The translations under genes were made by a program, and so were the position numbers. DNA of 3,280 bases from Dictyostelium discoideum (Eukaryota), in contig CH709164.1 of NCBI GenBank assembly GCA_000004695.1, positions 1-3,280 of the forward strand, read 5' to 3'. The notes beneath the pieces were generated by a model that was given only the letters and a program-made list of their open reading frames with translations, did no database searches and was not told the origin of the DNA. Positions 90 through 3,280 of the stretch are shown in pieces. How positions within the stretch are numbered: the stretch's first letter is position 1; each line of letters begins with the position of its first letter.

Positions 90-434
90 ATGTTAGAAGA
101 ACTTTACACTATGAGTAAATCTTCAAAATATTCAAATCAAGTACTTTTTTCAAGTGGTAAAGAAGAATATTTATCAAGTTTTAATAACTTTATATCTCAA
201 AGATTTGATGATTTTAAAATTATACTTCAAGAAGTTTCATCATTTAATGATAATAATAATAATAATAATGAATTACAACTATTTAAAAATTTAAAAATTG
301 ATTCAAATTTATTAATGAAATATACAGATACTATAATTACTTTAATTTCAGAGAAAAAACAAAATTTAATTGATAATGATGATAATCAATTTAATGATGA
401 AGTCTTGGGAACCATCAACTCTCAAAGTATATAG
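90..434 (+). CDS. Hypothetical low-complexity ORF (poly-Asn). Frame +3 is open from window position 3, so it may continue upstream of the window. It is possibly the C-terminal tail of the element's upstream ORF, and it overlaps the YR ORF in another frame across 370-434.
   Basis: Frame +3 runs from position 3 to the TAG at 432-434. Codon usage is Dictyostelium-like (AAT, GAT, TTA) at about 20% GC, with (AAT)6 at 252-269. I recognise no conserved domain. Composition jumps to about 38% GC near 400, where the YR domain begins. Confidence 0.3.
   Translation: MLEELYTMSKSSKYSNQVLFSSGKEEYLSSFNNFISQRFDDFKIILQEVSSFNDNNNNNNELQLFKNLKIDSNLLMKYTDTIITLISEKKQNLIDNDDNQFNDEVLGTINSQSI
246..269. repeat. Trinucleotide tract aat gat (aat)6, encoding NDNNNNNN in ORF 90..434.
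   Basis: Read directly. Confidence 0.9.
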
Positions 435-1316
435 CTCCAGTTATACAAGATTCCGCAATTTCTGTACTTTGAACTCTTTGAATCCAGCAAACATTACCTT
501 AGTTGTTTTCATGGATTATCTTACACATCTTTTCAAGCACAAACCTCCGTTAGCCTTCTCAACAATTAACGGTCATAGCTCTATGTTGAATCAGTTGTTG
601 CTCCTTAGGAATCAAACTGATATTGTTAATGATCCATTCATTACAAGAATTATAACTGGTATTCACAAGTTACGTCCTTCATCAGCAAAGTATAAAGAGA
701 TATGGGATGCAAATCAAGTATTCAAGCACTTATCTACTATCAAAGTCATCCCCAAGTTCACATACACTGCGCTATTAAACAAGACACTTGTTCTCTGTAA
801 AATGTTTGGTTTAGCAAGATCATAAGACTTGGTGAAGTGGTCGTTCAAAGGTCTCATTATTACTACTGACTCAATCAAAGGTCCAGTTATTAATGCTAAA
901 GAACAAAGAAGTGGTGTTGTTTCAATCTTATAATTAACTTCGTTAGATGATACAAACTCCCAAGTATGTCCTGTTCGCCTCCTTGCAACATACCTTAGAG
1001 CCTCTAAAGGAAGAAGAAAGCCCCATTCGGGTGACTCTGTCTTTGTTAAGAATGAGGGTGAACCTCTGGAAGTTAATGATATTAATTCAATTGTATTATC
1101 AACACTCTCAAGCTCCGGTATTGATACTAGCAAGTTCAAATCTCACTCTACCCGTTCAGCTATGGCTTCTCTGTGCTGTTGTCCAATAATGTTCCTTTCC
1201 ACGTTGTCAATAAGATGAGTCGCTGGAAATCAAACGATACTGTAGATACCTTCTACGATAAAAGAATCATTGGTGAAAAATCTGGTGCCACTATTTATAC
1301 GTTTTTATTTTCTTAA
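370..1316 (+). pseudogene. DIRS-like tyrosine recombinase (integrase-family YR), copy 1. It is disrupted by in-frame TAA codons at 823-825 and 931-933 and by a 2-bp (tg) insertion frameshift at about 1172-1175, which moves the reading frame from +1 to +3.
   Basis: The translation carries the YR N-terminal core-binding-like segment (SWEPSTLKVY...FRNFC...VVFMDYL...FSTINGHSS). Box I reads GLARS*DLVKWSF, with the TAA at 823 sitting at the usual Glu of R-x-x-E-L. A K-E-x-R hairpin region (NAKEQRSG) and box II H-x-x-R (KFKSHSTRSAMAS) follow. After the frameshift come RWKSNDTVDTFYDKR, which holds the W and the catalytic Tyr, and a stop at 1314-1316. The ORF track splits this gene across 370..825 (+1) and an off-frame 947..1189. 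Confidence 0.75.
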
Positions 1317-1417
1317 AAATTTCGCAAAACTCATAAAAATAAGTGTTTTCGACCCTTCACAACTTTCTGCACTGTGTCGGTTCGGAATTTTTATGTTTTT
1401 CGACCTTGCGCAATGAT
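1284..1417 (-). repeat. Truncated inverted copy of the distal roughly 120 bp of the 291-bp HSE-bearing unit. It behaves like a right-terminal inverted repeat abutting the YR stop codon.
   Basis: By manual alignment, 1284-1417 is the reverse complement of about 2266-2386 and 2561-2699 at roughly 90% identity, including ggtgccactatttatacg matched to cgtataaatagtggcac. The homology stops abruptly after caatgatcg at 1417. Confidence 0.85.
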
Positions 1418-2100
1418 CGAAGACAGGGGCCTCACGCATGCTAACCAAAGCAAAAGCTTTATTAAGTAAAATAAAAATACTGTTCGATATTATACGAACG
1501 AGCCTTCGTAAACGACGCATGTCTGTGATTATAGCAAACACGGACTCCCTTAACTGGGAGCCTTACTATGCCCCCATACGTTTTTCAACTATACACTATC
1601 TCTGTATAATACTCACTTATTAAAGGAATACCCATGCAAACACTCATTTTAAACTGGAAGGCGATTCAGTCGACCGACCAAGGTTTACACCCGAGAGCAA
1701 AACCAATGACTTGACTATAAACAGGACATTGTCGGTGAATTATTTGAACCAACTGATATCCACCCTGATATCACGTGGACTGTACTAGATTACAGTCATC
1801 GCGACTATACAGGCGATATCTATTACGATCTCTTTGCCTTTAAAGGTGACGATGATGTAGGTGACGAAGAGAGTCAGTTAGAGACTCTGTTATACCTCAC
1901 TACACCAACTGAGATAGATTTTAACTTATTGGCGTTTGGGGCAATTTCAGTAATTGACGATGGTGAAGGGGATTGACATTCTTAGTAGATGGTATGGCAA
2001 TCGTGGAATTACGGTTTACTGTAGAATCAACCTGTTGTAGAATCATATATACTGACACAACGGTCATTGGACTTTATACAGAACAGGGTCAGGGGTGTTT
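1418..2100. other. Unique central segment at roughly 40% GC, lying between the two inverted repeat blocks. I cannot place its origin. Its last roughly 30 bp show weak similarity to the unit end.
   Basis: I find no match to any other part of the window. GC content is clearly higher than in the flanking AT-rich repeats. It contains small direct repeats: ctgatatc twice (1753 and 1765) and tgtagaatca twice (2019 and 2035). Confidence 0.5.
1710..1976 (+). other. Met-less open frame of 88 codons bounded by TGA codons. It is acidic (GDDDVGDEESQLETLLYL...). It could be an exon or captured coding fragment, or chance.
   Basis: I translated frame +3 codon by codon from 1710 to 1973 and found no stop. 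A TGA sits at 1707-1709 and another at 1974-1976. There is no ATG, which is why the ORF track does not list it. Confidence 0.2.
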
Positions 2101-2198
2101 ATGACAGTCTTTGAGTTTGCGAAATTTATATTATCATATATATATATTATGAATAACATTTATTTATTTGAATTTCCCAAATATTTAAGATAATTTTT

Positions 2199-2216
2199 TA
2201 GAATGTTCTAGAACAT
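2199..2216. promoter_or_regulatory. Heat-shock element in unit 1. Three alternating perfect pentamers (aGAAt gTTCt aGAAc) sit inside the 14-bp perfect palindrome atgttctagaacat. An A-rich TATA-like run (aagaataaaaaaa) follows.
   Basis: tagaatgttctagaacat matches the Pelham consensus CTnGAAnnTTCnAG at 13 of 14 positions. The palindrome was checked by hand. Confidence 0.55.
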
Positions 2217-2489
2217 GAGAAGAATAAAAAAATTTCGAAAGAAAAGTAAAAATTTCGAACCGGCACAATGACGCGATCATTGCACAAGGTCGAAAAACTT
2301 AAAAATTCCGAACCGACACTATGCACAAAGTTGTGAAGGGTCGAAAATACTTATTTTTTTGAGTTTTGCGAAATTTTTAAGAAAATTAAAAATTTAATTT
2401 ATTAAATTATATTTTATATTAAATATATATATATATATTATGAATAACATTTATTTATTTGAATTTCCCAAATATTTAAGATAATTTTT

Positions 2490-2507
2490 TAGAATGTTCT
2501 AGAACAT
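2490..2507. promoter_or_regulatory. Heat-shock element in unit 2, identical to the unit-1 HSE and 291 bp downstream of it.
   Basis: The same tagaatgttctagaacat sequence, followed by gagaagaataaaaaat. Confidence 0.55.
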
Positions 2508-2740
2508 GAGAAGAATAAAAAATTTTCGAAAGAAAAGTAAAAATTTCGAACCGGCACAATGACGCGATCATTGTCTAAGGTCGAAAAACTGAAAAATTCC
2601 GAACCGACACTATGCACAAAGTTGTGAAGGGTCGAAAACTCGTATTTTTTTGAGTTTTGTGAAATTTTTAAGAAAATAAAAACGTATAAATAGTGGCACT
2701 AAAAAACTAAAACAATTTGATTTATGGAATTCCGACTTAG

Positions 2741-2756
2741 GGCGGGTGGGATGGGA
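2741..2756 (+). other. Canonical G-quadruplex motif GGGCGGGTGGGATGGG, preceded by TTAGGG.
   Basis: Four GGG runs with loops of 1, 1 and 2 nt, read directly. The surrounding sequence is more than 85% AT. Confidence 0.5.
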
Positions 2757-2818
2757 CTAATATATATATATATAATATAAAAATAATTTAATAAATTAAA
2801 TTTTTAATTTATATTATC

Positions 2819-2842
2819 ATATATATATATATATATATATAT
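2819..2842. repeat. (AT)12 microsatellite. Shorter (AT)7-8 tracts sit at 2423-2438 and 2761-2776.
   Basis: Read directly. Confidence 0.9.
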
Positions 2843-3280
2843 TATGAAATTTGGACGACAGTATTTAAGAAACCACCAGATTTTTCACCAATGATTCTTT
2901 TATCGTAGAAGGTATCTACAGTATCATTTGATTTCCAACGACCCATCTTCTTGACAACGTGGAACGGAACGTTATTTGACAACAGCAGAGAAGCCATAGC
3001 GGAACGGGTAGAGTGAGATTTGAACTTGACAATATCAATACCTGACTTTGAGAGTGTTGATAGTACAATTGAGTTCCTCTCATTAACTTAGAGAGGTTCC
3101 CCCTCATTCTTAATAAAGACAGAGTCACCCGAATGGGGCTTTCTTCCTCCTTTAGAGGCTCTAAGGTATGTTACAAGGTGGCGAACAGGGCATACTTGAG
3201 AGTTGGTATCATCTAATGATGATAATTCTAAGATTGAAACAACACCACTTCTTTGTTCTTTAGCATTGATAACGTGGCCC
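2842..3280 (-). pseudogene. DIRS-like tyrosine recombinase, copy 2. This is the 3' portion; the 5' end runs off the window. It has an in-frame TAA (seen on + as tta at 3088-3090), and its C-terminus is altered by the 174-bp segment, with the stop falling at 2842-2844.
   Basis: The reverse complement of 2874-3280 aligns to copy 1 at 880-1290 at roughly 90-92% identity. Its translation is ...NAKEQRSGVVSILELSSLDD...KPHSGDSVFIKNEGEPL*VNERNSIVLSTLSKSGIDIVKFKSHSTRSAMASLLLSNNVPFHVVKKMGRWKSNDTVDTFYDKRIIGEKSGG... The frame is continuous through box II and the Tyr motif because this copy has no tg insertion. Confidence 0.75.

Follow-up and report, generated by a model that had tools for sequence, protein, structure and literature searches.

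The DNA analysed here, a stretch of 3,280 nucleotides referred to as the window, originates from an unplaced contig of Dictyostelium (D.) discoideum AX4. Most of it is made up of two dead 3′ fragments of DIRS-1, a retrotransposon, which lie in inverted orientation and derive from a D. discoideum DIRS-1 cluster. The initial annotation drew attention to three in-frame TAA codons within these fragments, all of which were assigned to former glutamate (Glu) positions and tentatively attributed to a strong G-to-T bias, e.g., from oxidative damage, acting on GAA codons.

Layout of the window

The window is composed of the following parts, where ICR denotes the internal complementary region:

1–396, + strand: AT-rich sequence that does not belong to DIRS-1, with an open frame at 3–431 (GC 21.5%)
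397–1284, + strand: copy 1, the 3′ part of DIRS-1 ORF II (tyrosine recombinase), pseudogenised by two nonsense codons and a frameshift
1285–1419, + strand: DIRS-1 LTR fragment fused straight onto recombinase codons, without the ORF end or the ICR
1420–2121, + strand: non-DIRS insert (GC 41%) with remnants of two jumbo-phage-type genes
2122–2397 and 2383–2725 (span 2122–2725), − strand: two tandem DIRS-1 LTR copies
2726–2841, − strand: spacer that separates the stop codon of copy 2 from its LTR and holds the ICR
2842–3280, − strand: copy 2, the 3′ part of DIRS-1 ORF II, with its natural TAA at 2842–2844; the contig end cuts the other side

DIRS-1 is the founding tyrosine-recombinase retrotransposon, with an enzyme of this type in place of a DDE integrase. 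The translation of 400–1316 matches Pfam PF00589 (38.2 bits at a cutoff of 27.1) as well as the SAM-like N-domain, and intact copies display the tyrosine-recombinase motifs A-R-S-S-D-L, H-S-T-R, G-R-W and F-Y. More than 100 D. discoideum proteins match the copy-1 recombinase, with an identity of 86–93% to DIRS-1 proteins, and its homologues adjoin RT/RNase H genes in dense clusters. At the DNA level, copy 1 is 95% identical to an intact copy (L001:19242–20159). This intact element harbors a GAG ORF (16238–17245), an RT ORF (17296–19194) and a long overlapping ORF that ends in the recombinase at 20159, i.e., the window sequences are nearly identical to DIRS-1 copies of D. discoideum in which GAG and RT/RNase H ORFs are present, while the window itself holds 3′ parts only. 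The identity between the two window copies is 92% in a pairwise alignment and 89% in the multiple alignment with the disputed codons excluded. The L001 subfamily is nearer to both of them (92–96%) than they are to each other (89%), and copy 2 is 94–96% identical to the L001 copies.

The LTR pieces at 1285–1419, 2122–2397 and 2383–2725 match LTRs that flank elements in loci L001–L004, and are found in both orientations. In the DIRS-1 model the ICR is complementary to the LTR ends (PMC7192593), and in copy 2 the segment 2779–2810 is 97% complementary to the LTR end at 2383–2414. The ICR is missing from copy 1, where recombinase codons (...GEKSG) are joined to the LTR at 1280–1300. The same junction is found in L001:3536–4077 (at about 3940–3960); the two sequences are a recurrent or duplicated ICR-less deletion derivative, and an element of this type could not retrotranspose (PMC7192593). 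Copy 1 also carries an extra TG at 1172–1173 (CTGTGCTG as compared to CTGCTG), i.e., a +2 frameshift after which the frame runs into TGA at 1207–1209. Both copies are counted as dead because copy 1 is frameshifted with its 3′ end deleted, and copy 2 runs off the contig end.

Beside copy 2, the LTR repeat units 2136–2391 and 2427–2682 are 96% identical at a spacing of 291 bp. The tandem LTRs at 2122–2725 represent either a duplicated LTR or the LTR of the element itself with a solo LTR next to it. DIRS-1 is known to insert preferentially into other DIRS-1 copies (PMC3950715, PMC5633606, PMC7192593).

A locus orthologous to the window is found in an independent assembly (GCA_054883475.1), on a 4.89-Mb contig at 80–94 kb from one end; it is referred to as L005. 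It matches the window at 397–3273 with 99.83% identity over 2877 bp, i.e., five mismatches and no gaps. The first 396 nucleotides of the window, which carry an Asn run, have no counterpart at this locus, where DIRS-1 sequence continues upstream of 6912 instead. A Pfam search with the ORFs of 1–431 returned no match, nor was a homologue of the 5′ ORF found. The AX4 contig contains either a rearrangement or a chimeric join at about 393–397. By tblastn, the annotated AX4 protein P0060 (DDB_G0294286) maps to 3–431, 502–1125 and 1812–1973. DDB_G0294286 is an artefactual gene model, which joins the unrelated 5′ ORF, pieces of the DIRS-1 recombinase and a phage-like remnant, and which skips both copy-1 TAA codons as an "intron".

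The phage-like insert

The insert at 1420–2121 (702 bp) is located between DIRS-1 LTR pieces and is identical, with no mismatches, to L005 7935–8636. DNA searches with this segment against plasmids and phages gave no match, and the same holds for a Pfam search with the ORFs of 1401–2073. An exhaustive HMMER search with the ORF at 1710–1973 identified only two families besides P0060, those of P0121 (167 aa, E = 7e-22, 55% identity) and P0122 (166 aa, E = 1e-11); Pfam and PHROGs searches with P0121 and P0122 returned no match. Apart from the insert, the two genes whose remnants it carries were found only in PhiKZ-like jumbo phages, namely the metagenome contigs L006 and L008 and an Erwinia phage. 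The P0121 gene resides on a 97-kb metagenome contig together with PhiKZ_VTX, TubZ_C_2, DUF7193 and DUF7484 genes, and the P0122 gene on a contig of 130 kb, where the order of genes is the same. An annotated homologue is found in the 272-kb Erwinia phage pEa_SNUABM_54.

The 166-aa phage gene can be aligned to 1634–2108, with a +1 frameshift near 1688, a TGA at a conserved Trp (1707–1709) and more stops beyond 1973. In the phages, another gene is located two positions upstream of it; the N-terminus of this gene can be aligned to 1438–1545 on the same strand, and the phage gene order is kept. The insert is thus homologous to and syntenic with the phage contigs, and it is present in two D. discoideum assemblies. 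We lean toward the view that it is a decayed piece of a PhiKZ-like jumbo bacteriophage, fixed in a DIRS-1 cluster of a bacterivorous amoeba; the frameshift and the stops are the features that suggest the direction and age of such a phage-to-amoeba transfer. If this view is correct, the window would document phage-to-eukaryote DNA transfer captured in centromere-type repeat DNA.

Ancestral codons at the three TAA sites

The positions and reading frames reported for the three stops were confirmed:

823–825, + strand: TAA site 1, copy 1, in the frame starting at 400
931–933, + strand: TAA site 2, copy 1, in the frame starting at 400
3088–3090, − strand: TAA site 3, copy 2, in the context CTC TAA

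It was also confirmed that no stop interrupts the 141 codons at 400–822 and that, in a pairwise alignment of the two copies, the TAA at 931–933 faces GAA (the reverse complement of 3226–3228) and the copy-2 TAA faces GAA at 1069–1071. The ancestral codons were assessed by comparison with 14 further copies of the region, aligned from five DIRS-1-rich loci of other D. discoideum assemblies.

At site 1, all 12 other DNA copies that cover the position read TCA, and 69 of 70 homologous proteins have Ser. This TAA is derived from a Ser codon by a C-to-A change at 824. The stop had been placed at the near-invariant Glu of recombinase box I (R-x-x-E-L), which is off by one codon: in DIRS-1 this box reads A-R-S-S-D-L, where the acidic residue at R+3 is Asp, encoded by GAC at 826–828, and the stop occupies R+2. 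The equivalence of A-R-S-S-D-L with the R-x-x-E/D-L box is one that we take from established knowledge of the recombinase family. Searches of PDB sequences with the intact recombinase and with a family profile, aimed at placing box I relative to a recombinase of solved structure, returned no true match (only chance matches to TMEM106B), and the box was positioned by motif inspection together with the 12 DNA copies.

At site 2, GAA is found in each of the 14 other copies and Glu in 71 of 72 proteins. This TAA is derived from GAA by a G-to-T change at 931, and among the three stops it alone truly replaces Glu.

At site 3, the residue varies among the homologous proteins (Asp in 34, Gln in 14, Glu in six, His in five and Ser in five). 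The five L001 copies, which are the closest relatives of copy 2, all read CTC CAA, and the nine copies of the other subfamily all read GAT. Proteins that share the copy-2 haplotype (P0010, P0012 and P0057) have Gln; Glu is found in 6 of 66 proteins, none of which has that haplotype. Because the closest relatives read CTC CAA and the CTG GAA of copy 1 (1066–1071) is seen at this locus alone, at a codon that varies, the most parsimonious origin of the site-3 TAA is CTC CAA (Gln), in one C-to-T step, with some residual probability for a GAA ancestor. Compared with the CTC CAA of the subfamily, the CTG GAA of copy 1 is an adjacent double change, CC to GG, and may have arisen by tandem substitution or by inversion of a dinucleotide.

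From the above discussion, it becomes evident that the ancestral residues are Ser, Glu and Gln, i.e., Glu in one case of three. The proposed check of other copies for GAA at all three sites gave GAA throughout at 931–933 but not at the other two, where TCA (site 1) and CAA or GAT (site 3) were found. Both erroneous Glu assignments arose because of a misaligned motif (site 1) and a variable codon (site 3), and they illustrate that one decayed copy is unfit as a stand-in for the ancestor of another.

Origin of the stops

The explanation that we favor, with a probability of about 0.93, is that the three TAA codons are ordinary, independent nonsense substitutions which accumulated during neutral decay of dead DIRS-1 copies under a bias from G/C to A/T. 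Here, copies released from selection would have acquired the single-base changes TCA to TAA, GAA to TAA and CAA to TAA, none of which would have any function. That all three stops are TAA would follow from many A-rich DIRS-1 codons being one step away from TAA, and the common G/C-to-A/T direction would reflect the mutation bias of the species, which is approximately ten-fold and includes many transversions. Mutation-accumulation data for D. discoideum gave rates of 4.36e-11 for G/C to A/T and 0.44e-11 for A/T to G/C, with seven transitions and nine transversions (transition/transversion ratio 0.42; PMC7466956). While the identity of the element and the ancestral codons are shown by the aligned copies, we infer neutral decay as the cause of the changes.

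The outcome at the three sites can be compared with chance expectations. In the intact recombinase region there are 133 single-step paths to a stop, of which 5% start from a Glu codon and 42% end in TAA. Over the GAG, RT and YR regions the expected Glu share is 9.1% with uniform mutation and 15.5% with the mutation-accumulation spectrum (PMC7466956). Had it been true, a result of three Glu codons in three would have had a probability of 1e-4 to 4e-3. The probability of at least one Glu in three is 0.15–0.40, that of three TAA codons in three is 0.08–0.19, and that of three G/C-to-A/T changes is about 0.3 with the mutation-accumulation spectrum. Neither the observed set of one Ser, one Glu and one Gln nor the all-TAA outcome is unusual. 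Statements on the mutation spectrum drawn from three stop events alone are weak. A survey of nonsense codons covered 14,949 codons of other DIRS-1 copies, within DIRS-1-rich sequence of other assemblies that totals about 100 kb. The count leaves out codon 25 of L2a and codon 286 of L3b, which lie in non-homologous flank, and codon 307 of L004 (GAA to TGA), which is not a single step and is probably the result of an indel. The survey yielded 32 single-step nonsense codons, with ancestral residues Trp (7), Gln (5), Glu (4), Tyr (4), Ser (4), Lys (4), Leu (3) and Gly (1), which became TAA (16), TAG (9) or TGA (7). The changes were G:C to A:T in 12 cases, G:C to T:A in 10, A:T to T:A in seven, G:C to C:G in two and A:T to C:G in one.

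A specific G-to-T process, such as oxidative 8-oxoG damage acting on GAA, would direct stops preferentially to Glu codons. Two of the three changes in the window (TCA to TAA and GAA to TAA) are indeed G:C-to-T:A transversions, and to this extent the proposed bias is seen, as it is in the 10 of 32 nonsense codons of the same class in other copies. However, the remaining change is a transition (C to T), a Glu codon is ancestral at one site only, and in the survey Glu accounts for 4 of 32 (12.5%), as expected with either spectrum (p = 0.53 against 9.1% and p = 0.81 against 15.5%). Such a lack of a Glu preference is an observation, and G:C-to-A:T transitions are at least as frequent as G:C-to-T:A changes among the nonsense codons. 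Furthermore, the private substitutions of copy 1 are spread over all classes, with G:C to T:A in only 5 of 31, and in pooled DIRS-1 singletons this class makes up 30 of 184 with no class dominating. Frameshifts and deletions are also present in the other DIRS-1 copies; assorted lesions without a preference for Glu are what the initial annotation itself had named as speaking against its proposal. A strong oxidative bias on Glu is not needed to explain the data, and we regard a process of this type as very unlikely.

The pooled singletons do show a direction, with 0.27 G/C-to-A/T changes per G/C site versus 0.11 A/T-to-G/C changes per A/T site (2.4-fold). RIP-like or deaminase hypermutation was considered and ruled out, as the pooled singletons lack a single dominant class.

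Less likely still is an origin of the stops in faulty sequencing or assembly of an unplaced contig of low quality. The AX4 contig is indeed short and unplaced, its first 396 bases fail to match the orthologous locus, and the five differences to that locus are clustered near the contig end, at 3076, 3079, 3100, 3147 and 3205, where the window has G or C and L005 has A or T. Four of these (3079, 3100, 3147 and 3205) could be polarised using other DIRS-1 copies, which agree with L005, and the differences at 3076–3205 may reflect low-quality sequence or a small conversion tract. Yet the three TAA codons and the copy-1 frameshift are identical in L005, and because they recur in an independent assembly the stops are not sequencing errors. 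The lesions are genuine and were present before the two sequenced lines diverged.

D. discoideum uses the standard nuclear code. That TAA is instead read as sense (Glu or Gln), as is the case in certain ciliates and other protists, such that the copies would still be coding, is scarcely credible: the three internal stops are all TAA and two face GAA in the sister copy, but TAA terminates the GAG, RT and YR ORFs of intact DIRS-1, other copies read TCA, GAA, and CAA or GAT at the three sites, copy 1 is also frameshifted with its 3′ end deleted, and a histidyl-tRNA synthetase fragment beside the DIRS-1 cluster in L002 is open for 134 codons in the standard code. The initial annotation had itself preferred mutation over a reassigned TAA, and this judgment is upheld. 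Programmed readthrough was likewise ruled out, as intact copies have sense codons at the sites.

Nothing novel is left for the three stops. The result removes a false lead toward an alternative genetic code or a Glu-specific mutational process, and is otherwise of little weight; within the window, only the phage-like insert may merit further attention.

Compared with known systems, the in-frame TAA that faces GAA in a sister sequence resembles a ciliate-type reassignment, where TAA and TAG stand for Gln or Glu. In contrast to such a reassignment, TAA is the normal terminator in DIRS-1, the sites are sense in all other copies, and the organism uses the standard code. The window agrees with DIRS-1 in a recombinase ORF that is 86–93% identical to DIRS-1 proteins, and in LTR fragments and an ICR complementary to the LTR end; it differs from DIRS-1 in that the copies are truncated and mutated, and in that neither the ICR nor the end of the ORF is left in copy 1. 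The fragments are nested and inverted, as expected for DIRS-1 clusters, and nothing distinguishes the two copies from other decayed DIRS-1 fragments. With the AT-biased decay of pseudogenes and dead transposons no difference was found: the three changes are all from G/C to A/T, and the spectrum in other copies fits that obtained from mutation accumulation.
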